A stretch of 64,000 nt of DNA from Rhizaria sp. SCN 62-66 (Eukaryota). The position numbers and the translations under genes were made by a program. Below, piece by piece: positions 12,801 through 48,017 of the stretch (positions within the stretch are counted from its first letter, which is position 1; each line of letters starts with the position of its first letter). The stretch spans positions 1 through 64,000 of the forward strand of contig MEDY01000012.1 in assembly GCA_001724265.1 (NCBI GenBank), in the 5' to 3' direction. Below the pieces are notes generated by a model that did no database searches, was not told the DNA's origin, and worked only from the letters and a program-made list of their open reading frames with translations.

Positions 12801-13341
12801 TGTAGTCGCGTGTGTGATTGACAAGGACTGCCAGTGACATAGCGGCATGACGCGTTGGACGAACTATGGTCAAAAGTATAACGAGTTGGCCAAGCGGTCC
12901 CCCATGCCAGCGACGGAAAGCGCGGCAGTGATAGGTGGCGGAGATACACTGGGAGTACAAATACTTGTTTGAGGCCAAATGTCACATCCACGACAGTAGC
13001 AATAACAGCATCACGAGTAATAAAGCAACGAAATTTGACGTGTCTTCGACACAAGCACTCGAAGTCAAAAGCTGGTAGTCGCAGAATAGGCGAAGCAGCT
13101 CCGCAAACAGTGCAAAAGATGCCGGGACGAGTCAAGAGGGCTAAATCAACTCAGGTATAACAAGAGAAAAGAGTTTAGTGCGCGGTAGTAGAATGAGAAA
13201 AAATTGTTATGACGAAAATGCTGAACGAGAGAGAGACCGATGAAATAAACGGTGGTCTTCGCGCAAAGCACAATGTTGGATCAACCGCAGAGCACGCCCC
13301 TCACAACTCTACTCTTCCCTTGACTGCGTTACACTGTACAA

Positions 13342-15792
<2,451 letters not shown>

Positions 15793-16321
15793 GGTGAGAT
15801 GTCGGAGAGAAGAAACGTGCCTGTCGGGGCGTTGTGGGCAGAGAAACAGAAGCGGAAATAGGGTCAAGGAGGAAGCAGGGTGAGCAGGGGCAAGTTTGGC
15901 TGGACGTGATTAAAGCGCTCGGGAAGGTCTGTTAAGGGTCTGTCTTTGAAGCGAAAGTTGGCACGATACTGCGGCGCAAAGACGTTTGTGCACAAGTGCA
16001 ACGTCGTAAAATGTGTGTGCTCAAGACATGGGTAATGCGCTGGACGGCTGCAGACGCGGACGAGGGGACCAAAAGAGGGAATGCATGCCGGATCAGAACG
16101 AGCAAAAGCCCATCCTAGAGTTGCCTTTCAAACTCTGTCCTGTTTGGTCCCCAAAGCGAACACTCGCCACATCGGAGTTTAAACCAAAACATAAAATCAC
16201 AAATAATTCCACAAAGTAAAGCTTACACCGCCCCTCGTCGGACGTAGCGCGCCCGTGGTACTAGCAAAGGAGTGTTGGACGAGGGGGCGAGCCAGTCACT
16301 GGTCAGCCAGCTGCTTGCAGC

Positions 16322-16363: not shown

Positions 16364-16775
16364 GACGCGTTTGTGGTCAGTCCGCCTCCGACCCACGGTC
16401 CCTCTCCGCCAGCTCGCCAGTCAGCCAACTGACTGTGAGCTCCGACTGGCTGGGCGGTGGGCCTAAGGGGCACGCGAGAGTGCAATCGAGAGGAGATGAG
16501 AGAGGTGGCCAAAGGGCAATCAAGGAATTAGATGTTACGCGTGACAATCCGTTGGTAAAGTTTTGTTTCCGGGTTTTATGGGTCAATCAGCGTCTTTTCT
16601 ATTTTTCCCTTTATTTCTTTTCTGCAGTTCGCGAAATATGGCGTGCTTTCTGCTGCCGCGTGCCGTCGACGCGCGTGCCCGTTGGACGCTCATATCTTTC
16701 TTGCTTTGTTAGCTCTCTCCTTCTTTCCTCTGACTCACAACATCCGTCTTTCTATTTTTATTACGTTTACTGCAG

Positions 16776-19164: not shown

Positions 19165-21450
19165 TCAGATGTCGTCCTCGGGCTCGCGCCGCTCGCCCGC
19201 GCGGACGCGCCGTGTGCAGGGCTCGCAGGCGCAAAACACCCGGTACATCTTGGTCCCACACGAGGCGTTTTCCCAGCGCGCGGCCTCGAGCGCGCTAAGG
19301 ATCGACGCGTTGCACGTAGGGCAGCGCACGGCGTCGCCGACGATGCGCTCGAGCCACGCGTCGATGCACGCGGCGTGGAACGCGTGGCCGCAGGGGAGCG
19401 GCTTGACATCCCCGCCCGTCGTGAAGTCGTCCAGGCACACGGTGCACGAGTCGTTGTGGATGTGCGCGTGCGTGGGGAGCCGCGCCGCCGTGACCAGCCC
19501 GCCGCCAGCGGTGTTGCCCGCGGCACCGTTACTGCCGCCGCCGCCGCCGTCGTTGATCGAGCCAGAGCCGCTGACGGCGTTGCTGTTGCTGTCCGAGGCG
19601 GGGCCGCAGGTCTTGGTCCCCGGTGCCACGGTCACGCAGGTCACCACGCGACGCACCTCCCCGGCCGCGGCCGAGGCCGCGATTGCTGCGGCGGCGGCGG
19701 CGTCGGAGGGCGCGGCGGCGGAGCGCGGTGACAGCAGCGACATCTCGATCCCGTCGGCCTCGCCCGCTGCGCTAATGAGCGCGTCGCCGGCCGACGCGGC
19801 GCGGCCCGCGCCCCCCAGGCCGAGAGTGGAGCCCGCGTCGCTGGTTCTATGGCCCGCGCGCGCGCCCGCGCTCAACGCCGCGGCAGTCGCCGTATCGTCC
19901 GCGGCCGCAGACGCTGAAGGCGCGGAGTAGGAGGAGAGGCTGCCGCCGAGGGTGAAGCCGCCGCCTGTGGGGAAGGACGACGTCGCGCCAATGCTGCCGT
20001 ACCCAGCGCCCGCGCTGGGGCCAGCACCAGCAGCAGCGGCGCTCGCACTAGAGCTCGAGCTCGAGCCAGAGCCGGAGCGAGCGCTACTACCGCTGTTTGA
20101 GCGCGCGCCGAGGGCCGGGTTGGCGACAGCCTCGGCGCTCTGGACGTTTGTGTTAGGCCCGCGGCAGAGCAGGCGTAGACTGCCTCCGGGCTCAACGACG
20201 TACGTGTCGTCGGTGACCACGGCGGGCGCGCCCTTGCGCATCGCGGGGTCGTACTGCAGGCGCGCCGAGGGCGGGACGTAGACGGCCGTGGACAGCGCGC
20301 GGCCCACGTCGACGGCCTGCTCGCGGAGGATGCGGCGCGCGCACACGCGGCGCATCATCATGCCCGCAAAGTAGAGACAGAAGAAGAGTGGGAACACGAT
20401 CATGGCGATGATGATGTACTCGAGCACCTCGGGCACCGGGCTCACGCTCACTTCGCCCGCGGACGACACTTCCAGGGAGACGCCGACCGCGGTTTCGCCG
20501 TCCATCGGGGTGTACCCGGTCAAAGCGGCGATAACTCTACCCACGGCCGCAGCAGCGGCGGACGGCAGCCGCCGTTGCCCGCGCCTAGGCGGAGGTGGAG
20601 GCGCGGCGCTCGTGTCTGGGCTGTGGTGAGGGCTGTGGGCGAAGGGCTCGGCTGACTCGTAGGACGCCATCGAGGCCGCGAGCGCGCGTGCCGCGGATTC
20701 CGCCTGCGCTGGGGAGGAACCGCCGACGTCGGTGATGTAGTCGCGCGAGGCCTCAAGCGCGAGGGAGCGCAGGACGGCGCCGCGGGACATGAGCGGGGGA
20801 CGAGGTGGACGCGGCGGCGGCGGAGGAGGAGACTTGTCGTTAGAATCCGACTCGGAGGCAGGGTCGTGGTTGTTGCTGAGCTTGCTGTAGTTCGAGGGCG
20901 TAAGAACTTGGTCAGGCTCTGTCAAGGACTGAGTTTCCGTGAGGTTGAAGAGCGTGAGGATGCCGTTGAACGCCGTGTAGCGAATGAGCACAGTCTTGAC
21001 GGTCACTGCGTCGGGGTTGACATCATCTGGGTACGACATGGAGAACAAATAGTCCTCGTTGTTGCCCACGACAACGGCCGTGGCGCCGAGCGTCTGCGCG
21101 AGCTTGGCCTTGAAGAAGAAGTTGCACTCGCCGCGGCGCACGAGCACGATCTTGTCCGCGAGGGTGTCGTTGTAGAAGTCGGTGGCCGTTTTCTCATCTT
21201 CGCAGAGCAGCGTGGTGGCGAAGGCCGGGAGCCCGGTGACGTTAAGTTCGGCTGACTGCGGGCCGAAGAGCGCAGTGACTTGGGAGACGGGGAAACCGCC
21301 TTCGGTCGTCGTGACAAACAGAGCCAGCGACGGGATCGGCAGGCAGGACAGCATCAGGACAACGGATAGTGAGAGCGAGAGCAGCAGTAGCGCGGCACGG
21401 GAAGACGCTGCTGTGCGCGACAGCGGCGCGGGGGAGGAACGCTGCAGCAT
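19165..21450 (-). CDS. PA-TM-RING-H2 E3 ubiquitin ligase (RNF13/RMR-like architecture)
   Basis: Hydrophobic signal peptide, PA domain (KIVLVRRGECNFFFKAKLAQTLGATAVVVGN), TM helix (YIIIAMIVFPLFFCLYFAGMM), RING-H2 CTVCLDDF...LPCGHAFHAACIDAWL...CPTC. Stop TGA. Confidence 0.9.
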   Translation of the reverse strand: MLQRSSPAPLSRTAASSRAALLLLSLSLSVVLMLSCLPIPSLALFVTTTEGGFPVSQVTALFGPQSAELNVTGLPAFATTLLCEDEKTATDFYNDTLADKIVLVRRGECNFFFKAKLAQTLGATAVVVGNNEDYLFSMSYPDDVNPDAVTVKTVLIRYTAFNGILTLFNLTETQSLTEPDQVLTPSNYSKLSNNHDPASESDSNDKSPPPPPPRPPRPPLMSRGAVLRSLALEASRDYITDVGGSSPAQAESAARALAASMASYESAEPFAHSPHHSPDTSAAPPPPPRRGQRRLPSAAAAAVGRVIAALTGYTPMDGETAVGVSLEVSSAGEVSVSPVPEVLEYIIIAMIVFPLFFCLYFAGMMMRRVCARRILREQAVDVGRALSTAVYVPPSARLQYDPAMRKGAPAVVTDDTYVVEPGGSLRLLCRGPNTNVQSAEAVANPALGARSNSGSSARSGSGSSSSSSASAAAAGAGPSAGAGYGSIGATSSFPTGGGFTLGGSLSSYSAPSASAAADDTATAAALSAGARAGHRTSDAGSTLGLGGAGRAASAGDALISAAGEADGIEMSLLSPRSAAAPSDAAAAAAIAASAAAGEVRRVVTCVTVAPGTKTCGPASDSNSNAVSGSGSINDGGGGGSNGAAGNTAGGGLVTAARLPTHAHIHNDSCTVCLDDFTTGGDVKPLPCGHAFHAACIDAWLERIVGDAVRCPTCNASILSALEAARWENASCGTKMYRVFCACEPCTRRVRAGERREPEDDI

Positions 21451-22149
21451 AGGACGGGTGGCAGATAGCAAAGACGTGCCGGAGAAAGTTGCAACAACGT
21501 GAAGCCCAGGGGCTTGCGACGAGGGGAGGAGTTTGGTGTCGAGCAAACGACGTGGCTTTGTCTCAACGAAGACGAGGCTCTACCCTACTGAATGCCACCA
21601 ACAGAAATAATGAGAAAATAAATTGATAAAATGTTAGGTTTACTATGCTAAAACAATGTTTTTTCAGAGGTTGAGATGAAGAGTCTGGAGATGTGACACA
21701 AAACAGTCAAAAGGTCCTAACACTCAAAACGCCACTCGTTGTACCAATTTTCGAGTAGCATAGCAAATGCAGGACACGTTTTCTGGGTTTGGCATCGTGC
21801 ATTCAGAATAAAAAACAGGTCAACGTAGCGCAGAAATGTCTTGTACGGCCTAAAGCACGGACGCAGATGTGGGAAGCGATGCAGATACTGATGCCCTCCT
21901 CCTTGCCCAAGAGTGGGGTCGGGCTAGGAATCGTTTGTGGTCGACGGCGGACGAGGCTTTCGCGCCAAACACAGACCTCGAGAAACTGTCTATTGTGACA
22001 TATATCAACTGTATGTAGAAATGTTATCGGTCTCTATCGATAACAAAGCTGATTTAGTTTTCAAATTTTAATTTACCATTTCTGAAAGACGAATTATACG
22101 CTTATAACCGACCTTTTGTTCACATGATTTTGCGACGTGAGCGCAGTAG

Positions 22150-24138
22150 ATGGCTGATAGTTCCGCCTCCGCCTACGTCGAGGACGTGAGCGATGACGAG
22201 ACCCAGAAGAAGACTCCTAAGGTCTCCTTGACCCCCGTTGTGACGCTGCCGATTGACGGTGTCGTGCCGTCTGACCCCGAGACGGAGCGCCTGGTGAAGG
22301 AGGAGCAGGAGCGCGAGCGCATTCGCGAGCTCACCAACTTCGGCCTCGACGACATCCCTGCGCAGATCATCAAGGCTGAGGAGCTTTCGCGCGACAAGCA
22401 AGACTACACAGCCTCGCTGCACATTCTTGCGCACGCTATGAAGCTCACCCGCGCCGAATACGGCGAGTTCTCTGTCGAGATGTCGATCCTGAACCGCGAC
22501 TACGGCCTGGTCCTCTTCGAGCTGGGCCGGCTCTCCGCCAATGAGTTCAACGGCGGCGACGACGACGCCGCACAGCAGCAGCAGGCGCAGGCCGCGGCTC
22601 CTGTGTCCATGCACCCCGCAGACCTTGCCGATGCCGCCGCGATTGCCAAGGCCACTCGCGAGGCCGAGGAGGCCGAGGCCGCCGCAGCCGCTACCGCCGC
22701 CGCCGCCGCCGCGCCCGCAGCGGCCGAAGCCGAGACCCCTGCTGCTGCCGATGCCGCTGCTGAGGGCGACGCCGAGGGCGAGGCCGAGGCCGTGCCCGCG
22801 AGCGAGGAGGCGGGCTCCGGCGCCGCGCTGAGCGACCTGGAGATCTGCCGCGAGAATCTCTGGATCGGCGGCTTCATCCTCGAGGCGCACCTGCGCCGGT
22901 TGCGTGGCCAGCCGCTGCTGACGACTCCCGACTACCGCACGCGCGGCCAGGGCACGACGGCCTTTGTGGCCGCCGCCGAGGCCGCCGCGGCCGCCGCCGC
23001 CGCCGCGGGGACCGTGGTGCCGACCGACAAGCTCGAGACGGACGACGGGGGCGAGCCGGTGACGGCGGTGCTCGAATCGGGCGCCATCGTCCCGGAGCCG
23101 CGCGCGCCGTGGGTGCTGGCCAAGGCGCTGCCCGACTTCGAGAGCCACCTGGCGGACGTATACGAGTCGCTGGGCACGACGAGCATGGAGTTGGAGGCGT
23201 GGGACGAGGCGCTGTCAAGTCTGGAGAGGTCGCGCGAGATCCGCGAAAGCTGGGGCTCGTCGCTCGAGGAGACGGGCGCGCGCGGGCTCGCCTCGAGCCA
23301 CAACCAGCTGATGATGTACTACACGCACCAGATGCAGCCGCAGCGCGCGACGAAGCACGCCGAGGCGGCGGCGAACCTGCTTGTGTACCGCTGCTACAAG
23401 ATGGCGCATCGTCTGCTCGAGGCCGACTCCACGCCCGAGGGCTTCGCGGCCGAGCAGGCGCTCACGGCGACGCTGGCCGAGACGGGTTACGTGCTGCCCA
23501 CCAACGCCAGCCTTGATTCGCTGGTTGCGCCGCCCGAGCTGGGCACTAAGGTGCTCGAGGGCATCGAGCGCGCGCTCAACAAGACCTCGCCGACACTGCG
23601 GCAGTCGGCGCGCTTCCGCACCCAGGTGGGGCTGATCAAGGAGCTGCTGCAGGTGCGGCGCGAGCTCATGGAGCGTTGGGAGACGCTGCAGGACGAGATC
23701 AAGGCCGGCGTGACCGACAACCAGGGCGCGCAGGAGGTCAAGAAGATGGTCCGCGAAACCATCGGCATTAGCTCAGAGGGCAACAGCGGCGCGAACAGCA
23801 CCAACGGGGCCAACGCTGGGTTCAGCAACAACCCTGCGGCTGCGGCTGCGGCGGCTGCGGCGGCCGGGGGCGACGCCGCGGCCCATGCGGCGGCGCCCGT
23901 AGTGCTTGTCGCGGTCAGCAAGAAGAAGCGCCCCGTCGCTCCTACCGCTGCTGACGCGACTGCCGCTGCCCCTGCTGCCGCTGCTCCTGCTGCTGCTCCC
24001 GCTGCTGAGTCCAAGACTGAGACCGCGGCCGTTGAGAACGAGGCTGTGACTCAGGACGCGAAGCGCGCGCGCACTGCGGGCGAGGACGGCGCTGCTGCTG
24101 CTGAGGCCGCTGCTGCCGGGGCTGACGTCTCTCTGTGA
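22150..24138 (+). CDS. NASP: NASP/Sim3/Hif1-family SHNi-TPR histone chaperone
   Basis: TPR1 (YGEFSVEM...YGLVLFELGR), acidic interruption, SDLEICRENL, LADVYESLGTTSMELEAWDEALSSL and RGLASSHNQL; C-terminal basic NLS-like KKKRP/KRAR. Stop TGA. Confidence 0.8.
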   Translation: MADSSASAYVEDVSDDETQKKTPKVSLTPVVTLPIDGVVPSDPETERLVKEEQERERIRELTNFGLDDIPAQIIKAEELSRDKQDYTASLHILAHAMKLTRAEYGEFSVEMSILNRDYGLVLFELGRLSANEFNGGDDDAAQQQQAQAAAPVSMHPADLADAAAIAKATREAEEAEAAAAATAAAAAAPAAAEAETPAAADAAAEGDAEGEAEAVPASEEAGSGAALSDLEICRENLWIGGFILEAHLRRLRGQPLLTTPDYRTRGQGTTAFVAAAEAAAAAAAAAGTVVPTDKLETDDGGEPVTAVLESGAIVPEPRAPWVLAKALPDFESHLADVYESLGTTSMELEAWDEALSSLERSREIRESWGSSLEETGARGLASSHNQLMMYYTHQMQPQRATKHAEAAANLLVYRCYKMAHRLLEADSTPEGFAAEQALTATLAETGYVLPTNASLDSLVAPPELGTKVLEGIERALNKTSPTLRQSARFRTQVGLIKELLQVRRELMERWETLQDEIKAGVTDNQGAQEVKKMVRETIGISSEGNSGANSTNGANAGFSNNPAAAAAAAAAAGGDAAAHAAAPVVLVAVSKKKRPVAPTAADATAAAPAAAAPAAAPAAESKTETAAVENEAVTQDAKRARTAGEDGAAAAEAAAAGADVSL

Positions 24139-24785: not shown

Positions 24786-26423
24786 TCACTCGATATCGAG
24801 CGCGTCGACGTCATTGATGATCTGGAGGTCGTCCTCCTCCTTCTCCATGAACATCTTCTCGCGCTCGACGTAGGGCGCGGCGGTGAGCTTCTCGTCCTGC
24901 CGCGCGTCGCGCTCCTTGAGCTTGCCCACGCGGTTCTCGATCTCGGCCGGCGAGATGACGTTGTATTGCGCCAGGAGCAGTCGGATGTCGATCGTGAAGG
25001 ACGCCAGGAAGTCGCGCGACGACGACACCATGTTACTGTAGTCCTCCAGCGTGATGCGCTTGTCGCCGTCGCTGTCAGCCTGAGCGAACGCCACGTCGAT
25101 CATGTCCTCGGCGTCCTCGACCGACAAGTCGTGCATCGCGCTGCGCAGCATGCCGACCAGCTCGGCGCGCTCGATGAACCCGTCGCCGTTGCCGTCGTAG
25201 AGCGAGAAGGCGAAGCGCACCTTCTCGTCGACCGACGCGGCGGGCGTGAGGTGCGACAACATCGTCACCCACGAGCGGAAGTTGATCTGGTTCGACCGCG
25301 TGATGTCCATGAGGCGGAACAGCGCGCGCCCCAACAGCGAGTCAGGGTTGGTGCCCGTCGACCGACACAGCTCCTGCGTCGAGATCAGGTCGTCGGCGGC
25401 GTCCATCGAGCTGATGGCTGCGAACACGTCCTGCAGCGACCGCAGCGTCGGCACGTCGAAGTGCGTCGTCTTGGCCAGCGTCACGAGGGGCTGCTCCTCG
25501 CCCTGGATGCGCTTCAGCGAGTCCGAGAAGGTCTTAGCGGCCGCCTTCATCGAGTTGTTCGACGCGCCCGTGACCTGCGCGTGCAGCGCAGGGTCGTACT
25601 GCGAGTCCAGCGGCGTGATGACGCGCCCGTGGTTGTTGACCATCTGCGAGTCGTACATCGCTGTGTTCTTGGTGTCCACCTTGTAGTTCTTGGTGAACTT
25701 CTCCAGACGTGCCTTCTTCTCCTTCTTGTCCTGCTTCGCGCCCTTGGCGGCCTTGGCGGCGGCCGCCGCGGCCAGCGCGCGCCGCAGCTCCTCGGCGGGC
25801 GTTGTGCGGCCGTTGTGCGTCGCGGCCGGACGCGACGGCGGCGCCAGCGCGGCGGGCTCCGCCTCCACCTCGTCGCCGGCCTCCTCGGCCGCGGCGGCGT
25901 CGCTGCTGTCGCCGCCGCCGTCGCTGTTGGCGTCGGCCTCGTTGATGGCGGCCGTGTCGGACTCGCCCCCCGAGACGGGGTTGGAGTTGCTGCTCTTGGC
26001 CACGGGGTTGCTGTTGCTGTGGGACTTCTTGGTCTTTGTGTTGACGGCTTTGACGCTGACGTTGATGTTGTTGCGGACGTAGTTGGCGTCGGGCGCAAGC
26101 TGGTTCGGATCTAGGTACGTGCGCTCGACGACGGCGGCGGGGACGTTGGAGGAGACGACGATCTCTTCGTTCTCGCCGTCGTCGATGTACCCCGCGTAGC
26201 CGCCAGTGGGCGAACGCGCCCCTCCGCCAGCGGCGGCGTCGCCGTCATCGTTGTCACTTTGTTTGCCGTAGATGGCGTCTGAAGATGCTGCGGCCGCGGC
26301 GGTGCCCTTCTTAGAGGAGCCAGGGCCGCCGCCGCAGATGTTTTTGATCTTGCGGAGCTTGTTTTGATGCGAAGGATCGTCGGCGTCGGCGTCGGTGTCG
26401 GCGGTGGTGTGTTTATTGCCCAT
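24786..26423 (-). CDS. Calcineurin-B-like / neuronal calcium sensor-type EF-hand protein with long N-terminal extension
   Basis: Starts MGNKHT (myristoylation-type MG). EF-hand region LFRLMDITRSNQINF, KVRFAFSLYDGNGDGFIERAEL, AFAQADSDGDKRITLEDY. Stop TGA. Confidence 0.85.
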   Translation of the reverse strand: MGNKHTTADTDADADDPSHQNKLRKIKNICGGGPGSSKKGTAAAAASSDAIYGKQSDNDDGDAAAGGGARSPTGGYAGYIDDGENEEIVVSSNVPAAVVERTYLDPNQLAPDANYVRNNINVSVKAVNTKTKKSHSNSNPVAKSSNSNPVSGGESDTAAINEADANSDGGGDSSDAAAAEEAGDEVEAEPAALAPPSRPAATHNGRTTPAEELRRALAAAAAAKAAKGAKQDKKEKKARLEKFTKNYKVDTKNTAMYDSQMVNNHGRVITPLDSQYDPALHAQVTGASNNSMKAAAKTFSDSLKRIQGEEQPLVTLAKTTHFDVPTLRSLQDVFAAISSMDAADDLISTQELCRSTGTNPDSLLGRALFRLMDITRSNQINFRSWVTMLSHLTPAASVDEKVRFAFSLYDGNGDGFIERAELVGMLRSAMHDLSVEDAEDMIDVAFAQADSDGDKRITLEDYSNMVSSSRDFLASFTIDIRLLLAQYNVISPAEIENRVGKLKERDARQDEKLTAAPYVEREKMFMEKEEDDLQIINDVDALDIE

Positions 26424-27078
26424 CGTAAACGAAAAAGGCTGGCTAATAAAGGGAATAAAAGGGGTGAAATAGACACAGGTTGAAGGAGAGCGATCCAAGC
26501 GCGCGCGATCGAGAATAGACCAGAGATTAGTCCCGATGGAAGTCGAGTTGTGAGAGATAAGGGGGCGACGGAAAAAGCGAAGTAAACGAGAGAGATCAGG
26601 AGTAGGAGGGTTTAAGTGAGAATTTTGATATAGAAAAGATAACATAATATACAAATTTCACATCAGATAGTCTGTTAAGACTATTAGTTGTGCGGAGTGG
26701 CGCTGCAAAGTTGTTTCCCATGCAATATCACTCACATTCCTCCTTCACCTTGAGAGCGCATAGCGCATGACAAAAGGCGACCCAAGGAATATCATTTAAA
26801 AGGAATAAAAAACCTCAACGAAACTACACTAGAGCAAGCGATGACCAAGCATGTCGACTACAAGGGCTCCTAGGTGGTGTTTTATTTTGCGAGTTGCTGT
26901 TCGAGAAGAGCCGCCTCGCAGCCACCACAAACGCTTTTATGCGTCGCCAGCACACAGCTACGCAACCTCTCCTGACTTAAAGCTTCGCTATTATTGCATA
27001 CTTTTTTCTTTACACACAAATATAAAGTTGTTTATATTCATTTATTATCTTGATTTTCCACACTCTGCCTGTATAGTC

Positions 27079-30000
27079 ATGCAGACCGAGGGGGACGCGC
27101 GAGGAGCTTCACTCTCATCGCCACCCCTTCTTCTTCGCCGCGACCTCACCGAGTGGCTCATTCGCTTCCACTGGCCTGACATAGAGGACAACCTGGCACT
27201 ATGGGCACAGTATATCCATGAACACTTGCTGTCCCTTGCCACATTTTCGTTCTCATCGAGCACAGCTCTGCCTCAGACCAATTGTCCCACTGGCTTTGAG
27301 TTCACAGTCGATACTGAGATCGAAAACATCCCGCCGCAAAACGTTGCAAGGCCCATTTATGGCATTGCAGCGCAACAATATGGCCACAAAAAGCCTGCGC
27401 CAATACCTTTATTTTGCGACTTTGATGAGGACACGGACTCTTCAGTGCTGCCTTCAGTTTACGCAAGCACATTTGCCCACGCATCTGCCTCTGCCGCTGC
27501 TCCTGCTGCCAGCGCAATTCCTGGATCACCGTCACTACTGGCGCGGCAAGGGCGCATTCTTGCGCCTGTCGTTTCCTTGCCGGTGTGGCGACTCTGTTTG
27601 CAGGATGATTTGGCACGAACACGCGCACTGATGCCTAGGCTCGCAGGTTGGTTTTTGGCAACACCTCCCACGCAGAGTACGTTTTTAACATAACAGCATC
27701 AGACAAATATTTTGGCCTTGAGTTTTTTTTTCCTCAGTAAATGCGACTTTTTATATGTAAATTTTGTTTATTTTTAGTTTATGCGACGATTTTGTCAACA
27801 ATCTTGCCTCTGGTGCACTGCGCCGCGCTCTGGCCACGAGTCTCTCGTGCGCTGCGCGTGTCTCTACAACTCGAGCACTTTCAGGCGGTAGAAAGCGCAA
27901 GTCAGCGCAAGTTAACTGCACAAGCTGCATACGCACATGCAGTAGGTGCACTGGTGTTGGCGCGCGTCTCTGTTGCGTTTTCTGTCAAGACGACGCCGTA
28001 GCAGCAGCTGCATCTCTTATGGCACACGAGGTCACTCAATAACAAAGGATACTTTAGGTACGATATTTGAAAGCAAGGCGCTTTAATTTTTTTGTACATG
28101 CATTTATTATATGTGTGCTTTTGTATTACTTTCTAAAAACGGCTAACTGTGAGGATATAACCTAACTTGTGTGTTGTGTTTGTGTTTCGTTTCAGTGTTC
28201 ATGACTTGCGTCAATACTCGAGCTTTGCAGCAACAGTGTCGTCTGTCGGGGCTGTCACACAAACTGAAATTCCGTCACTTTAGGAGACTGGAGTTAGCGT
28301 TGCGGCGGCTGCTACATATCCGCAGTATCACGATAGTCGGAGCTTATACTCACAGTCACTACTCTAGTCGCAGTCAAAGTCTCACCAGTCCGCAGCACGG
28401 ACAAACATCAACACTAACATCAACAGCAACAGTCCCACAGATAATAATCCAATTACTCTCACTGCTGGCGCTGTTATGCAACGTTGGCGTATCCGTACTC
28501 GCAATCGCCCACACACGGAGTTTTGCAATTCAACTCAAAGTCAGTACGATGAGTCTGAGAGCGAGTTGTTTGTCGGAGACTGGCTTACTGCACACATTGA
28601 TCAAGCACGCGGGTGTTATGTATTTGAGTCTGTTTCTAGCTTAAGTAACAACAATAGCAGCAGCCACAAAAAAACATCGCACAAATATAAGAGCGACGAT
28701 AAATTCAGCCGCTTTTCAAGCATTGGCGCTGATGTTGGTGGAAGTGCTGAGGTTGGTCAACACAGTTTGCCTCCACATCCGCTGTCACTGTACACAATTA
28801 TAACATCGCCAGTCACTGAGAGCTTACAAGCCGCCACATTAACGCTCACTCCTAGAGCGCTTAGTCGCCGACAAGGGGTCCTTACACCTCGCGTCCTCGC
28901 GCCTACAGTCACCGCAGTGCTGCCGCCGCATCTCAGCGGTCGCGTGCCGGTTGGCTCGGTGCTCACAGTCACTGGTTGGGGACAGTGCGAGTGCTTACAC
29001 ACTGCTGTCATGATCAACAGTGATAGAAATAAGTTTGGCGCAATCATGAGCGATAGTCGTGGTGCAACATCTGGTGTTGCTGCCGATATGAGCGCGTTGT
29101 TGAGTGCGGAACGTGTTGGCCCTGCTATGGCGACTGTCTGGGTTCAAGTGCTTCACTGCGCCCCACTGCCTTTGCAGTTACCGCCGCAGTTGTTGTCAAG
29201 CCCACCCAGGTCACAGCGCTTCCAGTCTCATCGTAACGATAACAATGAGGACCCACACAAGTTCTATCTAGTTCCTCGTAACGAACAACAAAAGCAAGGA
29301 CAAAATCAACTCGGATTTCCCACGATTCGTCCAATTGTTGATTTACCAGACTCGGTTCAACGCAACATTGGACACTTTGACCAGCTATCTGACTCTGCGG
29401 GGCTGCCTATTATTCCAGGACTGCCCACGGTCACTGGCTTCGACCCATCACCGTGGCCGGAGATCTTAAGTCAGGCCGCCTCATATGCACCCGCGGTTTG
29501 CGGCTACGGCGGGCTTGTGCTGCTTAAGACTCGACTATTGCATTTGCTGTCATTAGTATCAGCACCAACGCCGGCCCCAGTGGCTCGGGCCACTGCAGCC
29601 ACGGCTCAACAGCAACGTGCGCGTGCGCTTGAAGATGAGACACGGCGAGCAGTTGAAAGCATTAGTGAACAGAGTTTAGGTTTTAATACCTCAAGAGCTC
29701 ATGGCAGCAACAACGCCTTGAGCATTGATGTCGTGTCATTGGCACAACAAGTAGTTACTGATGTTGATCTTGCTGTTGTGGCTAGTGCGGGTAACTCGGT
29801 TCAGTTGTCGCCCCTGTCTGTGTTGTGCGTTGCAAGCGGCGGCCTGGCACCAGTCGCGGAGGCGCTGACCAAGTACACCGCTCGAGTCGCTCAGTTGCTG
29901 CTTACGGTAACTTCTGCACACGACCTCTCTGCGGCAACGCGCACAATTGCAAACTCTGCTCTCGGTACCAATTACAGCGTTAGTGCCGGCGTTGGAGAGG

Positions 30001-33000
30001 GTGGGGGAATTCTGTTGTCGAAAAGCGCATTGTTTTCCTCCGCGCGCGCAAATGTGAGTACTTCGGCCAATTTAAGCACACTTTCAGAGATCACGCGCGA
30101 CTGGGGCATGTTTGACGAAAGCGATGAAGCAAAGTACGCTTATACGCACTCGCTTGCTCACCATCTTGGACAACCCATGACTCCGCCGCTGCACTTGGAT
30201 CTTGCATCTGACGCTATTTCGGCGGGTTTGGAGCACGCCATGGCGATTAGTGCACTCAGGGCAGCGCGTGCTCATGTTCTGGGCGCGGGGGCGCCATTAA
30301 TGCCGTTAGGGACAGTTACAGCACAAGGTGCGGCAGCAGCTGCGGCAACGGTTACTGCAGACGCGCAGGAGCAAGATCGCATTCTACAAGCTCAAAAGCA
30401 AGTAGAAAATGAAAATTCCGCCCCTCAGATCCGCGCGTCTCGCGGCGATGTTTCCGTTTCTGCTGCTGCGTAGTTAATGATATCAGCGGGCACGCGGCTC
30501 TGTGTTCCCGGCGCCGCCGCAGTGGCCGCTGGTGCACTGGCTGCGCTCCGCGCGGGCCGGCAGTCAAAGGCCTCTGTGGCAACCGCTACGACTGCGGTCG
30601 CCGCTGCAGTCGCGGCCGCAACAGGCGCGGGTGCGGGGGATGGAGCTGACTCGGTCGCTGCAAGGGCCCTCTTTGGCGCTGCTGCGGTTGCTGGCGCTGG
30701 AATATTGGGCGAAGTCTCAGTTACGAATAGCCACTCTCGCTGCAGCTTGGGTGCTGGCGTTAATGGATCTAGCACTGTGCGAATGACTGGTGATGATAAA
30801 TGTAAGCGCGCCTGCGTCATGGCACGCGTGCAAGTGCGGATTGCAAAGGCGACTGCAAAGCAAGCGGCAAAGGTTTCCCGTGAGGCGCGTTGGGCTGCTC
30901 GGCAGCGTCAAAAAGAGCTCGAGATGCACGAGCTGGCGCAAGCAACAAAACTACGCGGCGTCCGTCACAGTCGCGTTTTTAACGCGAGCGTTGGCGTTGA
31001 TGTGAGCGTTACGGGGACAGAGTCGAGTTTTCATAAGAGAATGAGTGACGTTATGAAGCGTGAGGATAGTGTCTTTGGTAGTGACAGCAGTGACACTGAT
31101 AGTGGCGACGAAGATAACTACGGGTCTTTTGCAGGAACAGACACACTTTCTTTTGATAGCATCCACACAGATGCGGCACAATGGTCGAGAAGGGATACTT
31201 ACCTTCAAGACTCTTACTACCCCGTTGCTCGTTGCGCACATCACGCTTCAAGTGCATCTCCAGGAACTATGGGCACAGCGCTGGGCAAGAGCGTTCTTGC
31301 GCTATGCTTTACTGAGGGCCTAGGACCAGGCGCAGCGTTGCTGTTGCGGCGTTTGATTTTGCCGATAGAAAATGAAGAGACTTCAAAACGACTCCAGCAG
31401 TCTGATAAGCAAAACCAATAGGTTAATCTCCCCAGATCAAATGCGAGCAACTTGTTTGATTACACCCTTTCTTCTCGCAGCGACCGAGCGCCATCCGTTG
31501 TTGTATCGGTCTCCGCGCCAGCCGGCTGGGACCCCGCCAAGCTGGCAGTAACCGTGGGCAAGCTTTGGTCATCTCGCACCCGCGTTGTGCCCGCCACAGA
31601 AGCAGCACTGCTTACAGCCGCTTTTGCTCCGCTTGCGCCACCGCAAGTTACTCCAGCTCCAGCAACGGGGAGCGGCGGTGATACAATTGCGGTTAGTGTG
31701 GCGCCGATGCGCGGCGGACCCGGCTTTGGCAGCGGTCAGAGCGGCAGCGTTGTAGCAGCATTGCCAGCATTGGCGGCAAAGCAATCGGCTGCTGCGGCGG
31801 CTGCAGCGACTGCAGCTGCAGCTGCGGCGGCGGCTGGGGACGATAGGCTTGGAACCACAATGTTTCTGACTGCAACTGGCGCTGACGCGGCGTTCACCGT
31901 GCCTGGTGTGTTTGTAACGGTGCAAAATCCGACTGTTATAAATAGCGACAAGAACACCGACGGAGTCGCGACGTACGACGTAAACAAGAATGTCAAAATT
32001 AGCAACAATATTAGCTCTGGCATTAATCAGAGGCCAACTTTACCAGTGACTCAAAGTAGCGGCGCTGCGGGCAAAGCTGTTGATGCAGCCGCTTTCGTGT
32101 TGGCTCCGCTAGCAGTGACGTATCCTGTGCCAGCGCCCACCGGTCCCGCAGCCGTGTCCGCCGCTGCTGCGGCCGCTCGTCGTCACCGCCGCGCAGCTGC
32201 GGCCTCAGGATTAGGGGCGGGCGTAAATGCAACTGGGAGTACTGTCGGCTCAACATAGCCTGCCTCCGTAACTGCCGGCGGTGTGATGGTCAGCGCAATA
32301 ACTGTTGGGGCAGTTGCCGTTAGCACTCCAGCTCTGGCGGCACTGACGGCGGGCGGCGGCACAGTGTCAGTCACGGGTGCGGCTGTGATCTCACTAACTA
32401 AGCCGCCTGCTTCAACGACAGGAGGTTCGTCAAATAATAGCGGTCGACAAGACGCTTACACGGACGACATGTTCACCCCCGCGGACAGGGCGGCCGCAGC
32501 AGAGGCCGCTGCCGCAGCGCTCGCCGCTAGCGGCGCCGCTGGCTGTCCCGCGCGCGCCACGCTCACGGTTACACCAGGCCCGCTGAGCTCTGAGCTGGCG
32601 TTGTTGCTCGCCGCGCCCACGGTTGCCGTAACCGTGGTCGCAGGGCCGAGGGCTGTGGCGGGGGCGACAGCGGAGGACGAGGCTGAAGCAGAAGCGGAAG
32701 AAGAGGAGGCCGCTGCAGCAGTGTTGCGCCGTGCTGCTGGTGCGTTAACATTCCCGAACTTAAACTTGAGTGACACAGGTCGCTTTGACAGCGGTTTTAA
32801 TGAGTTCAGCTGCTTTAGCGCGTTTGAACATGATGCTTCTGCCAACGATGACACTCTTGACCGCGCCGCTGCAGCTGACGCCGCCGCATCTGCGGAAGCA
32901 GAAAGGGCGCTGTTTGATCGGATTCGCGCCGCCCATGGCCTTGTACCCACAGGCAGCCCCACTGCGGAAAACGAATCTGCGAGACTAGGACCGCCGCCGT

Positions 33001-33890
33001 TGTCTGCCGAAGCAGCGCGCCTGCTGTATCTCTTCCACCTTGCGGCGCGTCGCACTCGCGGCAGCGGCTACGCACTGCAGCAGCTGTCCGCGCTGCTCAC
33101 CACTGCGCGCGCGTGCGCGAGTCTGCGCGGCGCGGCGGTCGCGGCTGTTGGGGACGCTGCGACTGCGATCGCGCTGGCTGAGGAGCGCGTGGCGGCGGTG
33201 CTGGCGCTTACTGGCGGCGCCGCGGTAAAGGGTTACTTACGCGCGAGGCAGCGGGCAAGGGACGCGGAGGCTGCAGAGGCTGCGGAAATGGGGCTGCCAG
33301 GATCCAGGCGCGGGCGCGGGGTGACAGATGGTCCTGGGCTCCCAACAATAATCTTCGGCTTTGTTGCAGGGATTCATGGTACGATTTTACAAACACATTT
33401 TTGAACATGTCATTACATTTGAGACTGAGCCAGTGAAGCTGAGTGATAATTGAGATGTTATCATTAAACGCTGTTAACTTTCGCGATGCATGTATTTGTT
33501 GATTCTTTTTTGTTGGCCATAGGCGACTGCATGTGGCTTGAGTGCGGGATTGGCGTTAGTGCTGCAGAGCGTGCACGCAGTTTTTATGCAAAGATCCTGA
33601 TCTTTATTCTTGATACACTCGGAAATAGCTTCGTTAACGCCGGCTATCAGGATCAGCAGCGACAGCATCGGTATGGCGACAACACATACAACAACGATAG
33701 CAGCTTAAGTGGTGCCGGACAGCGGGGCAGTTACGCTCCATTACCTGGCGCAGGATCCGCATTTGGGCTTAGTTCGGGCGCGGCAGCAGGGCCAGGGGCT
33801 GCGTTTGGGGCAGGGTGGAGCGGGCTTGACGATGTCGTGTTTAGCGATGATGACGACTTTGACGGGAGTGGTGGTGAATTCTACGCGTAA
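27079..33890 (+). CDS. Divergent MCM-family protein (MCMDC2-like), 2142 aa if TAG is read as sense; exons 27079-27676, 27778-28057, 28196-33378, 33523-33890; six in-frame TAG codons
   Basis: Three GTACG...YAG introns give 6429 nt (2143 codons) ending in TAA. The C-terminus matches the MCM lid region (PPLSAEAARLLYLFHLAARR...LQQLSALLTTARACASLRG...GDAATAIALAEE). Also an OB-fold-like GSVLTVTG and KTRLLHLLSLVS. No recognisable Walker A/B. The ORF-track fragments at 28476, 30477, 31452 and 32283 share one frame and are separated only by TAG. Confidence 0.7.
27677..27777 (+). other. Intron 1 of the MCM-like gene
   Basis: GTACGT...TTTTTAG, AT-rich, phase 1. Confidence 0.75.
28058..28195 (+). other. 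Intron 2 of the MCM-like gene
   Basis: GTACGA...CCTAAC (branch-like)...TTTCAG, phase 2. Confidence 0.8.
33379..33522 (+). other. Intron 3 of the MCM-like gene
   Basis: GTACGA...CCATAG, phase 1; joins the frame to the 33486-33890 ORF. Confidence 0.75.
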
Positions 33891-34379
33891 GTTTTTGTGT
33901 AACAGATTGTAGGAGAATATTTGAGACTAAAACGCACTATTTCAAGAATAAATAATCACCTTAGACTTCAGTCCACTGGTGCTGCGCATAACTTGAAGTT
34001 GGTTGCACTTTGCTTTTCAGGTTCATAATCACTGAGGATATGCGACCTTGCATTAATATCATCAAAATTAACGCTGTACAATCAATATAGTGAGAAAAAC
34101 ACGCACATTTCTCATCAACAAATTTCTATATTGCGCGCTTACATGACTGACAATGTGTCGCAACCACGAACCCAAATCTCTCAGCCAGGCTAAAAACGGC
34201 TCAATCTCGGTCGGCTGAGTAGGTCGAGGCCCGTTTGAAATTATCATCGCCAGCCTGAAATGTCTCGATCATCAATATCTCTGTAGTGATCTTATTTTTT
34301 ATTTCTCAAAAGATTATTCATAAAACTTTATTTAAACTCCTATTTTGATGTCTATCCTCGCCACAGCAGCTCCCCTCAG

Positions 34380-37300
34380 ATGAGTGCCCCATCGTGGCGC
34401 TCCATTGTGGGCAGCGGCGCTCCTCAAGCCGCGCCACCCGCCGCGCCCACATCCACACCTTCTGCAGCCTCGATCCTCGCTGCTTCTCTCGCTAAGCCTT
34501 CCTCCACCGCCGCCGCAGCGGCTCCCGCGCCACCTCGCGTGCGCCAGCTGCGTGCCCCTGACGGCGCCCGCCTGCCCTCGATGACCGTTCAGCAGCGCTT
34601 GCGCCACGACGCATATGCGCGCGCCAACCCTTCCGCCGTCACTGCCACCACCACCGCGACAGGTGCCGTCCCGCAAGCTGCCGCGCCGCAGCAGAGAGAG
34701 TCTGTCCCCGGCGGGGCTTTTGTTCCCCCGCACCGCCGCGGCTCGGGCTCTGCCTCCAACAGCGCCAGCGCCAGCGCCAGCTCTGCGTTTGCAGGCCCGC
34801 ACGCCGCTGCACTGGCCCCGTCCGCCCCCGCCTTTGCCTCGTCCGCTCTTTCCTCCGCGTTTCCGCTCTCAGGCGCGTACGGCCCCGCGAGCGCCGCCGC
34901 CGGCGTGGCGGGCCCGCTGGTGTCCCGGGCCGACCCCTGGACGGGGGACGCCTGGGCGCCGTCGGACTCCTGGGCCTCGCTGCTCAGGGACGTCGCCGCC
35001 GCCCGCGCCGCGCGCGCCGCGGCCGCCGCGCTTGACGCCGCAGTTGCGGACGCACTTGCACAGGCACAGCTCTCGCAACAACAGCAGCAACAGCAGCAGC
35101 AAGACGAGGCTGGGAGCATCCCGGCATCTCTCTTCGCAGTTCCTGGCTCTGATGCATATTTGAGCAATAATGCTGCTGCTTTTGGTGCAAGCGCGAATAC
35201 TACACCGGAGACGCAGATTTCTCAGGCGCGCACTGCTGCCGCAAGTTCTGATAATGTTGCTGAGACACAGCAGCAGCAGGAACAACAGAAGCAGCAGCAA
35301 CATCAGCAGCATCCGAGCGACGGCGACGACGACGGCTGGGTGACGACGCAGAGCAAGAGCGGAGGCGGCAAATCAAAGTCAGGCCGCGCTGTGATTCCGC
35401 CGTCACCTTCTGGCGGCAATCGCAAGCATAGTCAACACAGCAGCAACAACAGCTTGAGTAACGCCGGTCGCCGCGGCTCGCCCGCGACCGCGACGGCGAC
35501 CGCGGCTGCTGCAGCCAGCGCCACCGCGAAGCTTGTCGCCGCGCAGACCGTGGGCGCCGGCGTCGGCGCTGTCGTCGTCCCCGTTGTGGTCCCCGCGGTC
35601 GCCGCGGCCGCGACCGCCGCCGTCGCCTCTCTCGCTGCCCTGCGTCCCGTTGCTGTAGCGGCCGCGCAGGCCGCGCGCGCGGCACATGACGCTGCCACAA
35701 CGGGCGCGAGCGTGAGCGCGTTGAAGGATGCTGAGAATGACTCGTTCCAGGCGTTTTCTGAGCACTTGTCGCGTGCCGTACGCAGTGCGAATCGTGCGAC
35801 CGACGCGTTCGTGGATGCCTGCGAAAGTATCACGAGGGCCACAAGTACCAGCACCACCGCTAACAGCAGCGCGAGCACGAACGATACAAGTGCGAATGCG
35901 ACTGCCGGCGTGAACTCAAGCAATGGAGCTGATTCTGCCAGCGTGAACGTCGCTGTCGTGAGCGTCGACAAGTTGCCCGCTGCTGCGGAGTCTCAGTCCG
36001 ACATCGCTACTCCGACCCAGTCGCAGCCGCTGAGTCCGCCCCTGCCTCTCTCTGCAGTGCCCGCGCTGCTGGCCCACGCCGTCGCTGCCGCCACGCACGA
36101 CATCCTCTCTCTGCCTTCCCTCTCTGCCGCCGCCGCCGCCGCCATGGCGCAGCGCGCCCTGTGGTGCGACGACATGTGGCGTGCCGCGCTGCCCGCGCTC
36201 GCGCGACTTGCCGCGCGGCTCGGCGGCGAGGCTGCGGCGGCGGCCGCGGCGGCGGACGCCGCGGTCGCGGCGTCTTCGGCAGTCACGACCGTTGCAGTTG
36301 CCGCTGTAGCCCACCACAGCGCCGGCAGTGCGAACAGTAAGGCGAGCAGTGCCAAGACGGACGACGGCGCTGCGACAGTGAATCTGTCCATCTCGTCTGT
36401 TTTGGCCGCAAGTGGCAGTACTGCTGATGCGAGTCATAATTTCAACGAGAGTTTCTCTGCGGTAGCCGACGGCAGCTTTTGCTCTAATTCCAGCTCTAGC
36501 GCGAGTGCAAGCGCGGTGCCCGTGCCGCTGTTCGTGCTGCCGACCGCGCACAAGCGCATCACCGCGGCCGCGGGTGTTACACTGGCCTGGAAGCGACTCG
36601 TTTATTACAACGCCAACACGCGTTGCGACAGCAGCAAGCCTACTGCGACCGGGGGAGCTGACAGCGCTGCTTCGACCGACTCAGCCTCGTCGGCTATCGC
36701 TTTTGCGCTTCTCTGCGCCATGCTGCCGCCCGCCACTGTCGGCGCGGTCTCGCACTGGCGGCCCGTCGCGGCGTACCTCTGTGCCAAGGCGTCCGCCACC
36801 GCCGCCGACGTGCTCATTGCAGTCGCTGCGGCCATGGCCCTCGCGGAAGTCAAGCCCTGCGCGGAAGGGAAGTCATCGTGCAATATTGGCCTGCCCGATT
36901 GCCCCTGGGGCTGGCCTGCGTCCGAGGTGCTGTCCTCGTTTGTGACGGTGGTAGCGGCAGCGGCCGCGAACGTGCGGCTGCTGGGCGTTGCTCTCACGCC
37001 GCTCTCTCTCAGCTCTCACTCCAGCGCGGGGGTTGTTGCTCTCGTTTCGAACGGCGATGACTCCGTTATTGCCAAAGACTCCGTTTCCGTTGTTGCCTTA
37101 GCTTGTGACTCCGCTACCGCAGCGTTCTGCGCTCTTGCACGCACAGTCGCCGCTGTCACGACTACCACGACCAGCGTTAATGCTGGCGCGGCTGCAACTC
37201 CCGCGGCCGTGGCAGTGCCGACTGCACCCGAGGCCTGGCTGGCCCGCATGGCGTCTCTCCTTCTCACCGTTGTTGCCTCGCCGCACACCGCGGCCGTGCT

Positions 37301-40300
37301 CTCTCGGGCCGCAGCGGCGACCGCGGCCGCTGTCGCCGCGGCCGTGCAGGGCACCCAGGGCACCGGCGGCGCGGCGGGCGCCGGCGGCGGCAGCTCCGGC
37401 CTCCCGAAGACGCCGCTCCGCGCGCGCGCCGCGCCCCGGACGAACACGCCCGCCAGCACGAGTTCCCAATCCTCCTCGGCGTCTTCGTCATCGGCGGCGG
37501 CATCGTCGTCGCTTGTGGTGATCCTGCTGAGCAACGGCGCCCGCGCCGGCGCCGGCCGCGCGCCGCAGTTCCTGTCGCCGCCCGAGCGCGAGTATGTGCG
37601 CGTCCTGTTCCGCCTGCTCACGGTCACGCTCGCCGCGGCCGCCGAGGCCGCCGCGGCCGCGCCCATGCCGTTGCCCGCGGCCGCGCTGCAGCTGCAGCAG
37701 CAGTCTGCGCAGTACGCGCGCAACGGCAAGGGCGGCAGCGCGCCTGCATTCGCCGCCGTGAACGCGACGGCCGAGAACAGGCTTGCACGCACGCGCATCG
37801 CTGACGCTGCAAACTGCAACGCGGGTCCTGCTGTCCCTACCGCTGGGGTAGGAGGCGCCGGCGCTGGTGCAGTGGGTGGAATGCCTCAGTGGGTCGTGGG
37901 GCTGACTCGAGACTACGCTGCCGCGCTGCCGAAGCTCGCGCTCGCTGCCACAATCGTCTTCGGCCGGCCCTCTGTTCCCAACGCGGGCACTAGCTCAAGT
38001 AATCCCAGTGACGCTGCGAGCGGCAGTGCAGATGAGGCGCTTGAGCTGCCTCCGCTGCCGCTGCTAAGCGCCAGCGCGCTGCCCTGCGCGCTCGAACTCC
38101 TTGCTCTGCTGCGCGCGGGTGCGCCGTTCGCCGCAACGGCGCTGCTTGCACCTACTGCTGCTGCCGCTGCTGCTGCCTCCGCCTCTGGTGCGAGCGACAA
38201 TGTCACCGCGGGTGAGTGCCATGCGGCGACGGCGCGCGCAGTGGCTGCAGCGGGCGCGGCGGCCGCGAGCGTTGCGCTGACGCTTGTGCGGGCGCTGGCG
38301 CCGCTCTTGACCGCGGGCCTGGGTCTCGCTGTTCCTGTCACGGCCGACTGCAAGAGCGACAGTTCTGCTGGCTTCAAGGGGGCTGTGGGCGGCCGCGGCC
38401 TCGAGATTCGTCTGCCCTCTCTGCTGCGTCCTAATTGTCGCGCTAGCGCAAAGACGTGCAACAACGACGCAAATAGTACCATCAACACGACGACTACAAG
38501 TTCAAATAACTCCGTCGCTTTATCAAACAATCGTGCTACATCGACTACGACAAGTTTGGTTGCTGCTCCTAGCACCACCACCAGTAGCGCCGGCTCTCTC
38601 GCGGCGATGCGTCTCAAGTCTCTGCGGCAGCGCGCGCTGGCCTTGCTGCTCGCTCTTGCGGCGCCGCTGCCGCTGCCGCCCGCGCCGCTGCCCGCCGCCG
38701 CCGCGGGCGCGGGCTCTGGCTCTGCAACTGGGGCCGCTGCAGCTGCCGCCAACGCCTCGGCCATTGTGGCGGCATCTGGCGCGCCTGCTCCGTTCTTCCC
38801 CACTGTCGCACCGACAACCTACACTAGCGTTGCCGGTGCGAATGCCAATGCGAGTGCCTTTGGCCGTGACCGCGCAAAGACCAGCAGCAGTAGCGCGCCG
38901 GAGCAACTGTCTGGCGGGCTATGGTGGATGTCTTTGCTTGATGCCAGCTTGGCCACAGCAACACAGTCACCGTCACAAACTGTTTCGTTGGCGCTCCTCT
39001 CCGCCCCATCCCGTGCTGGTGTGGCTGCCGCAGTGTCGTCGGCGCTGCTGGGCGTCGTGGCCCCCGTGTACAGCCTCTGGACGCCGCTGCTTGCCGGCTG
39101 CGGTGACGCCGCGCAAAATAAAAATATCATCAACGCTGGCGCGAGCCTGAACCCGAGTGCGAGTGGTAGTGTGAGCTCGACGGGCGCAGTGTCTCTGGGC
39201 CCAGTGCGCTACGGCCGCGGTCCGCAGCTCGCAGCCGAGTTCACCGCCGGCCGCTGGGGCCGCTTCACGCCGGCGGCCCACCGCTCAGTCTCTGCTGTGA
39301 CCGGCTCTTTCTTCTTCCCCGCTGGCTCGCTGCTCACCGTCGCCGCGCTGGAGCCGCTGGGCTGGTCGCAGGCCGCGGCTGCCGCGCTCGTCGGCGCGCT
39401 CATCGCGGGGCCCGCTGCGGGCGCAAACGTCACTACTGGGAACGCTTACCCAGCTAAGGGTGGCGGCTCGACGTCCGCGGCCGCAGGGGACGAGCTGCGA
39501 GTGCTTTTCCCGATCTCGCCCGCAACCGTGCAACAGGCTGCAATCGGCACGAACTCCGCGCTATCAGCTCTCTCGACGTCTGGGTCCGTGTCTTCCTCCG
39601 CGTCCGCAGCTGCGACGTCCTGCCTCGCTGACGCCGTCGCCGCCGCCGCGGGCGCGGGTGCGGCGCCCGCTGCGCCCGCTGCCGTTGCCGCTGCCGTCGG
39701 CGCCGTGACCGCGACGGCCACCGCGCTTTCGCTCTCGCTGCTGCTCCGTTCGCGCTCCACTGCTGCTGCTCCTGTTGCTGCTCCTGTTGCTGGCGGTGCT
39801 TCTGTGGCCACTGCGAATACCGGGGCAGCACAGGCAGTCAGCGCGAGCCACTTGGCGTCGTTCGACTGGGTGACCGTGAGCGCGCTCTCGCGCCCGCTCG
39901 GCGCGCTGCTTGCAGTCGTCAACGCCGCCGTGCAGCGCGCAGCGCGCCGCGACCGCGCCCGCGCGCGCGACGCTCTCGCCTCGACTGGGACTGCAACCTT
40001 ACAGTCACAGCCTGCGCCGACTGCAGCCAATGAGGCTGCCGCGGCGCGCCCCGTGGCGTCGCCGTTTGCGCCTGCGCTCGCAGCTCTTTGGACGGCGCTT
40101 GCTGCGCGCGCCCTCTCCGCGCGCGCCGCGACGCACTCCGCACTCGCTGCCATGGGCAACTCCGACGCCAGTACTGGCGACAGCGTCGGTGCTGCAGCGG
40201 GCTCTATCGCGATGGGCGCGGACGCGCTGCTGTGTTCCCATGCGTTTGTCGCTGCAGTGGCCGAGGTCGTGGCGCCCGCCGCGGTTGCGGCGGTCGCAGC

Positions 40301-47800: not shown

Positions 47801-47984
47801 GGTGGCTGTGCGCGGGGTCCGCCGCGAAGGTGAAGCCCGCGCCGGCGCCGTAGCTGTCGTTGGGCAGCTCCAGCGTGTCGTCGTTCTCGCGCTCGCTGTC
47901 TTCGTCCTCGTCCTCGTCCTCGTTGGCGTTATTGTTATTGTTGTTGCGATTCGCGCCCTTGTTGCCGTCCGCGTTCACACCGCT

Positions 47985-48017
<33 letters not shown>

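Follow-up and report, generated by a model that had tools for sequence, protein, structure and literature searches.

Six in-frame UAG codons that may be translated in an expressed, spliced gene of a GC-rich rhizarian

The first 64,000 nucleotides of contig MEDY01000012.1 from Rhizaria sp. SCN 62-66 (assembly GCA_001724265.1), here called the window, hold on the plus strand at 27079-33890 a gene whose spliced frame contains six TAG codons. On balance the evidence favors translation of UAG as an amino acid in this target gene, a conclusion drawn from the pattern of codons rather than from protein. The frame is otherwise free of stops and none of the neighboring genes ends in TAG, an asymmetry between stop types that is hard to obtain in any way other than by UAG translation. 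A UAG that is decoded and disfavored fits both sides of the pattern, namely the TAG-only asymmetry in the target and the absence of TAG from its neighbors.

Excision of three GT..AG introns leaves 6429 nt, or 2143 codons including the terminal TAA at 33888, with TAG in frame at 27999, 28281, 28365, 30471, 31419 and 32256 and with no internal TAA, no internal TGA and no frame break. This model, re-derived here exactly, matches what a preliminary description of the same DNA had put forward. Exon 1 (27079..27676) begins with the ATG at 27079, exon 2 (27778..28057) carries the TAG at 27999-28001, and exon 3 (28196..33378; 5183 nt) carries the other five and forms by itself an open frame of 1747 codons if TAG is taken as sense. 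Exon 4 (33523..33890) ends with the TAA at 33888-33890. The introns share GTACG donors (three of three) and pyrimidine-rich acceptors: intron 1 (27677..27777) is 101 nt long with GTACGT..TAG borders and a GC content of 0.27, intron 2 (28058..28195) is 138 nt with GTACGA..CAG borders and 0.33, and intron 3 (33379..33522) is 144 nt with GTACGA..TAG borders and 0.35. Intron 2 is deduced from splice signals and frame; were it retained, a TGA at 28068 would fall in frame. Unlike these three real introns, the sequence around the TAGs is not AT-rich. With all TAGs decoded the protein would be 2142 residues long and mostly of low complexity. Gene callers that apply the standard code split the gene, and the stored protein P0017, of 665 residues, is one such fragment. 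The target is also the only gene of the window with clear spliceosomal introns, the others appearing single-exon, with 48849-48952 and the surroundings of 57772 as possible exceptions. The co-occurrence in one gene of introns, TAG and a low GC content at third codon positions (GC3) is so far without explanation.

Position-specific composition predicts 14.1 TAA, 18.5 TAG and 13.2 TGA in the target frame. For TAA and TGA together none is observed against 27.3 expected in 2142 codons (P ~1e-12), while TAG occurs six times against 18.5 (P = 0.0007); the other five frames of the spliced sequence contain 14-42 TAA, 8-35 TAG and 25-69 TGA. The target frame is guarded against TAA and TGA and only partly against TAG. 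Codons from which the missing stops could arise are present, as the preliminary description had stated, and were counted at 44 CAA, 13 CGA and 19 TGG. If the stops were chance nonsense, each would be TAG with a probability of 0.41-0.44, and six TAGs out of six would have P = 0.005-0.007. About 15 other open reading frames (ORFs) of the window were delimited by length, GC3 and Pfam, and the 13-14 genes whose ends could be scored terminate in TGA (7-8) or TAA (6) and never in TAG, with GC dropping after each; one of the TGA ends, at 48953, may lie within an intron. Assuming that TAG normally ends 20-25% of genes, its absence from 13-14 ends has P = 0.02-0.055. TAG is thus not the common terminator that would have spoken against sense decoding, although the sample is small and confined to the window.

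The composition of the target differs from that of its neighbors at one codon position. Its GC3 is 0.52, compared with 0.71-0.91, while GC1 (0.63) and GC2 (0.55) match the neighbors; since these two are not lowered, the low GC3 is not decay. Hypermutation resembling repeat-induced point mutation, or methylation and deamination, was considered as a source of the low GC and the TAG-only stops and rejected on the CpA/TpG content, on CpG that is not depleted and on the normal GC1 and GC2: the (CA+TG)/(AC+GT) ratio is 1.30, and observed/expected values are 0.73 for TpA and 1.08 for CpG.

Contigs from four sequencing runs, X2, X6, X7 and X8, were aligned to 26800-34200 to check the letters and the splicing. 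X6 and X7 represent one sample, a cDNA library, and X8 is a polyA metatranscriptome. X2 comes from another study, ten years later, and its contigs must be DNA because they run through the introns. Jointly they cover all six TAGs and list no difference at any of them. One, at 26919-28868, has no other letters at all, and a 2915-nt piece covering two TAGs has one other letter at an unlisted place. The same six TAGs stand in assemblies of 2015 and 2025 and are not assembly errors; CAG at these positions, which for the preliminary description would have spoken against a sense UAG, is not among the differences listed. The X6, X7 and X8 contigs are short and none enters any of the three introns. A junction of 33377 with 33522 (GT..AG, cut +1) in X7 record 20 spans intron 3, and an X6 contig starting at 27778 has a 15-nt loose end equal to 27662-27676, the last bases of exon 1, which backs the removal of intron 1. 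Two contigs preserve the TAG at 30471 (X6 record 12 and X7 record 17) and two that at 31419 (X7 record 19 and X8 record 24, the latter from polyA RNA and with the TAG 22 nt from its end). X8 record 29 (33675-34023) passes the terminal TAA into the 3' untranslated region. The target gene is real, transcribed and spliced, and at the two sites with RNA cover neither splicing nor editing removes the TAG, so that the retention of TAG in mRNA anticipated by the preliminary description holds for two of the six sites.

How would such a codon be read and yet be so rare? The target is an expressed nuclear gene of an uncultured, GC-rich rhizarian living in wastewater and bioreactor communities, and in the mechanism proposed here the ribosomes of this organism would decode all six of its UAGs as an amino acid. 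UAA and UGA would terminate and UAG would not, or would do so only poorly, probably because eRF1 recognizes UAG weakly and loses to a near-cognate tRNA or to one whose anticodon is CUA. UAG would then be a rare and least favored codon, purged wherever codon choice is selected, as under strong GC3 bias, and surviving only in the target, whose synonymous sites would be unselected. Such decoding could extend to the whole genome.

A number of observations weigh against this reading, which rests on one gene, and on one that is almost an orphan and lacks codon bias. TAG is in frame in one of the 16 ORFs of the window and in none of the 14,946 codons of the other 15; in-frame UAG in many genes was not found there. 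TTA, the rarest sense codon, occurs 24 times in the target and 20 times in the neighbors, and scaling from it gives 5.0 expected TAGs in the neighbors (P of none = 0.007), while scaling from CAA gives 8.5 and from TTG 14.3, with none seen. In proportion to the target, no sense codon, however rare, is as scarce in the neighbors as TAG; they hold far fewer TAGs than scaling predicts, so UAG is no ordinary sense codon in this DNA. The preliminary claim that UAG is a sense codon therefore survives in part: the gene is real, TAA and TGA are excluded, TAG is tolerated and none of the scored neighbors ends in it, and the genome-wide form of the claim is not borne out by the codons of the other ORFs. 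The window of 64,000 nt contains no tRNA gene and no Rfam match. RNA contigs cover two of the six TAGs, both kept, and introns 1 and 3; the TAGs at 27999, 28281, 28365 and 32256 lie outside this cover, a gap that proves nothing in itself. Neutral evolution of an untranscribed gene was the warning sign named in the preliminary description. The gene is transcribed; the 22 strain differences in the cDNA contigs, nine synonymous and 13 non-synonymous, are indistinguishable from neutral, their synonymous share (9/22, against 26-35% expected; P = 0.09-0.34) falling short of demonstrating purifying selection. One of the 22, a depth-2 variant in X6, turns GAG into a seventh in-frame TAG at 27873, and a low-depth X6 contig has a 1-nt insertion of A in an A-run at 27387; both may be strain variants or errors. 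Finally, a 701-residue TAG-free piece of the protein matched only itself in a word search and in an exhaustive phmmer search over 1.84 billion representatives, and its Atlas model has a predicted local distance difference test score (pLDDT) of 0.31 and template modeling (TM) scores of at most 0.25.

Could the target instead be a recently inactivated gene, still transcribed and spliced, in which six TAGs are chance nonsense and UAG is a normal terminator? The confinement of TAG to one of 16 ORFs, the lack of codon bias and of relatives, the near-neutral strain differences and the low-depth variants that add another TAG and an insertion would all be at home in such a gene. Set against this, chance would rarely make all six stops TAG, and six nonsense hits correspond, by estimate, to roughly 100 or more substitutions, which would normally be accompanied by several frameshifting indels; none is present in 6.4 kb, and there is no hypermutation signature able to make stops without indels. 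Moreover, the six TAGs are the same in the assemblies of 2015 and 2025, the transcript is found in polyA RNA despite would-be premature stops upstream of an intron, and no neighbor ends in the supposed terminator. Inactivation is on these grounds an unlikely account. The remaining way to dismiss the TAGs is as an artifact of sequencing or assembly, of small overlooked introns that remove them, or of U-to-C RNA editing. The four sites without RNA cover leave some room for it, and very little is left by the independent DNA contigs, for which no listed difference falls on a TAG, by the cDNA contigs that cross 30471 and 31419 unbroken and unedited, and by TAG surroundings that lack the AT-richness of the three introns, so that an artifact is highly improbable.

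A different possibility accepts that full-length protein is made and has UAG as a leaky terminator, with partial near-cognate readthrough giving a low yield, an ambiguous meaning and no clean reassignment. The pattern fits a codon that is costlier than any sense codon and far cheaper than TAA or TGA, since TAG is too rare even in the target and absent from the codon-biased genes. Losses would multiply over six successive sites, however, and the bases after the TAGs (C, G, T, T, G and C in order) share no readthrough motif. A UAG that still terminates should also end some of the 13-14 neighbors, and it ends none. Leaky termination is for these reasons rather unlikely, and translation of UAG as an amino acid stays the favored reading.

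The two leading candidates for the amino acid that UAG would specify are Gln and Leu. By eye, Gln codons lie beside two of the TAGs (TAG-CAG-CAG and CAA-TAG) and Leu beside three of the six. No homologue aligning at any of the six was found by word search or by phmmer over the same representatives, so the preliminary view that the contexts favor Gln is not supported; they do not separate the two. Gln is the commonest outcome of UAG reassignment. Leu is a leading candidate because it is the outcome in a related rhizarian, exLh.

Rhizaria sp. exLh belongs to Sainouroidea and, in the portions of Panek et al. (2017; PMC5304391) available here, reads UAG as Leu and retains UAA and UGA as stops. The same portions report 384 in-frame UAGs in 71 genes (about five per gene), with UAG the commonest Leu codon in proteasome genes and few UAGs in highly expressed genes, gene ends in UAA (56) or UGA (15), and a position of exLh most often as sister to Guttulinopsis vulgaris, which seems to use the standard code. 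The likeness to the window organism, so far as those portions describe exLh, lies in UAG alone being affected, in gene ends at UAA or UGA, in UAG being scarcer in strongly biased, highly expressed genes and in Guttulinopsis as the nearest named relative of both. The difference lies in the 15 ordinary ORFs of the window, among them V-ATPase subunit a, CAP, IFT52 and the RCC1-repeat gene, which have no UAG in 14,946 codons, and in the kind of data, since what is described for exLh is a transcriptome and the window gives genomic context in the form of introns and stop usage. UAG as Gln with UAA still a stop is described in excerpts for Iotanema spirale (PMC5304391) and for Protocruzia tuzeti and some phyllopharyngean ciliates (PMC11687900). 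These systems resemble the target, as far as the excerpts go, in the change of UAG alone; two of its six TAGs adjoin Gln codons and TAG is one transition from CAG. They differ in being unrelated lineages, and in the target no aligned site speaks for Gln and three of the six TAGs adjoin Leu. Lineages with a changed UAG and UAA as stop are given in the excerpt of PMC11687900 as a rhizarian, Iotanema, Scotinosphaera, Protocruzia and some phyllopharyngean ciliates. Titles and the beginnings of abstracts among the matches listed in a search of the literature since 2018 revealed no further rhizarian case, and a separate search aimed at Cercozoa returned no paper. From its codon pattern in one gene, the target is probably a second rhizarian UAG-only case, a kind already on record.

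The preliminary description had gone further and proposed an independent reassignment. That is unproven, because the organism groups with Guttulinopsis, the usual sister of exLh, and so falls in the group of the known rhizarian with UAG as Leu. Given that exLh has about five UAGs per gene and the ordinary window genes none, either this is a different and younger event than that of exLh, or it is the same code under strong GC3 bias. A young or incomplete reassignment, still in progress in a free-living, GC-rich rhizarian and with an origin separate from that of exLh, is a possible but doubtful extension of the favored reading. In that scenario UAG would have been lost as a terminator and would be re-entering coding sequence only where codon choice is unselected.

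The affinity of the organism was addressed with V-ATPase subunit a, whose closest proteins include Guttulinopsis vulgaris (EukProt) as the only named relative. In a maximum-likelihood tree of 33 rows the window protein, Guttulinopsis vulgaris and metagenome proteins make up a clade of 11 (support 100/100). It is nested in a larger clade of 19, likewise supported at 100/100, that takes in the chlorarachniophytes Amorphochlora and Partenskyella. The sister of the window protein is P0004, at 64% identity. This one-gene tree, whose rows are limited to the output of a word-based search, contain no exLh or other sainouroid, and leave out P0026 and everything below P0036 save four named or annotated rows, places the organism within Rhizaria together with Guttulinopsis. 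One row, the EukProt protein P0018 labeled as the euglenid Ploeotia vitrea, falls beside the chlorarachniophytes (94/92) inside the rhizarian clade and may stem from prey or from contamination of that transcriptome. Only composition excludes Rosculus as the source organism: the part of PMC10770858 at hand gives R. vilicus a GC content of 37.7%, against about 0.6-0.7 over most of the window.

Sampled words of 27079-33890 were found in runs that ten studies had made on wastewater, bioreactors, activated sludge and fuel cells, and four runs (X1-X4) contain at least half of them. Contig scans of genomes with V-ATPase and of metagenomes with the target protein turned up no relative, and a second scan with the V-ATPase alignment returned 80 loci, the best at 43% identity, none of them this organism or a close relative. 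One of these scanned metagenome contigs, 178 kb long and from a long-branch relative, has a V-ATPase a frame at L005:8966-12580 that most likely ends in TAG, which means that TAG as a stop exists in the wider clade. Its apparent in-frame TAGs were rejected, being located in the 5' leader and at what is probably the end of the gene, and the contig is uninformative on the window organism.

What the target encodes is less clear than its expression. At E <= 0.01 no Pfam family matches exon 1 or exon 3, and at E <= 10 the sole match is MCM_lid (PF17855), with E 0.17 and 12.9 bits against a cut-off of 27.4. This match covers residues 42-105 of the piece 32871-33377, or 32994..33185 on the plus strand, downstream of all six TAGs. 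Pfam MCM (PF00493), MCM_N and MCM_OB gave no match and no MCM ATPase core was found. An Atlas feature search with the same piece returned MCM_bind (PF09739) as its first three matches (0.94, 0.93 and 0.92), followed by MCM_lid clusters, at a recognition value of 2004, under the mark of 2300, which makes MCM_bind a lead only. Sequence searches of the PDB with three pieces of the target gave nothing meaningful, and the C-terminal piece, modeled by AlphaFold from its single sequence, reached a pLDDT of 49.6, too poor for a fold search. The feature matches and the weak lid match make the C-terminal part look like an MCM lid or an MCM-binding protein; it differs from both families in that there is no Pfam match at cut-off, and so none that is significant to MCM, MCM_lid or MCM_bind, no PDB match and no ATPase core. 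MCM-binding proteins are several times shorter than the roughly 2100 residues of the target. The intact conserved MCM block and the label of MCM gene in the preliminary description reduce to this sub-threshold, lid-like stretch, with features that point to MCM_bind.

The window as a whole is GC-rich, with about 0.6-0.8 GC in coding sequence and 0.3-0.5 in spacers. On the plus strand lie genes for IFT52 (2861-4819), an RCC1-repeat protein (5734-9891), CAP (16734-18185) and a TPR protein (22150-24138), an orphan of 3273 residues with no Pfam family (34290-44111), an ORF without a name (50721-51869) and an mTERF-domain gene that runs off the end of the window (56034-63999). The minus strand has ORFs without a name at 427-2181, 44847-48848 and 48953-50116, and genes for a Gln/Ala-rich protein (13342-15909), a PA-RING protein (19165-21579), an EF-hand protein (24786-26657) and V-ATPase subunit a (52132-55170). 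TAGs just upstream of the PA-RING, TPR and 56034 ORFs were considered as in-frame TAGs and rejected, as they lie in leaders and not in coding sequence. The Gln/Ala-rich ORF has long Gln, Ala-Gln and Ala runs, with 122 CAG and five CAA; its 127 Gln codons and no TAG make it a sensitive place to see TAG if TAG were Gln and freely used. The orphan at 34290-44111, which adjoins the target, has a GC3 of 0.71, below the other neighbors and between the target and the rest. The stretch 10000-13300 is an AT-rich spacer of 3.3 kb (GC 0.30-0.54), unusually long for a compact contig, and has no long ORF in the standard or the TAG-sense code, no tRNA or Rfam match and no second low-GC gene. The sole N of the window, at 57772, falls in the overlap of two long GC3-rich ORFs that lie in different frames, 56034-58001 and 57577-63999 (the latter with the mTERF domain); the two probably form a single gene in which a miscounted base or a short intron near this position interrupts the frame.

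Few nuclear codes change UAG while UAA stays a stop. A second rhizarian case, if true, would involve a free-living organism met repeatedly, across several studies, in wastewater and bioreactor runs, would show the reach of the trait around Sainouroidea and would add genomic context, that is introns, stop usage and, after genome binning, tRNA and eRF1 genes. The cost of a newly captured codon could be gauged from the extreme skew between the unbiased target, with six UAGs, and the 15 biased ORFs, with none. Should the reassignment prove young, it would offer a snapshot of a codon-capture or ambiguous-intermediate stage with genomic DNA and not transcripts alone.

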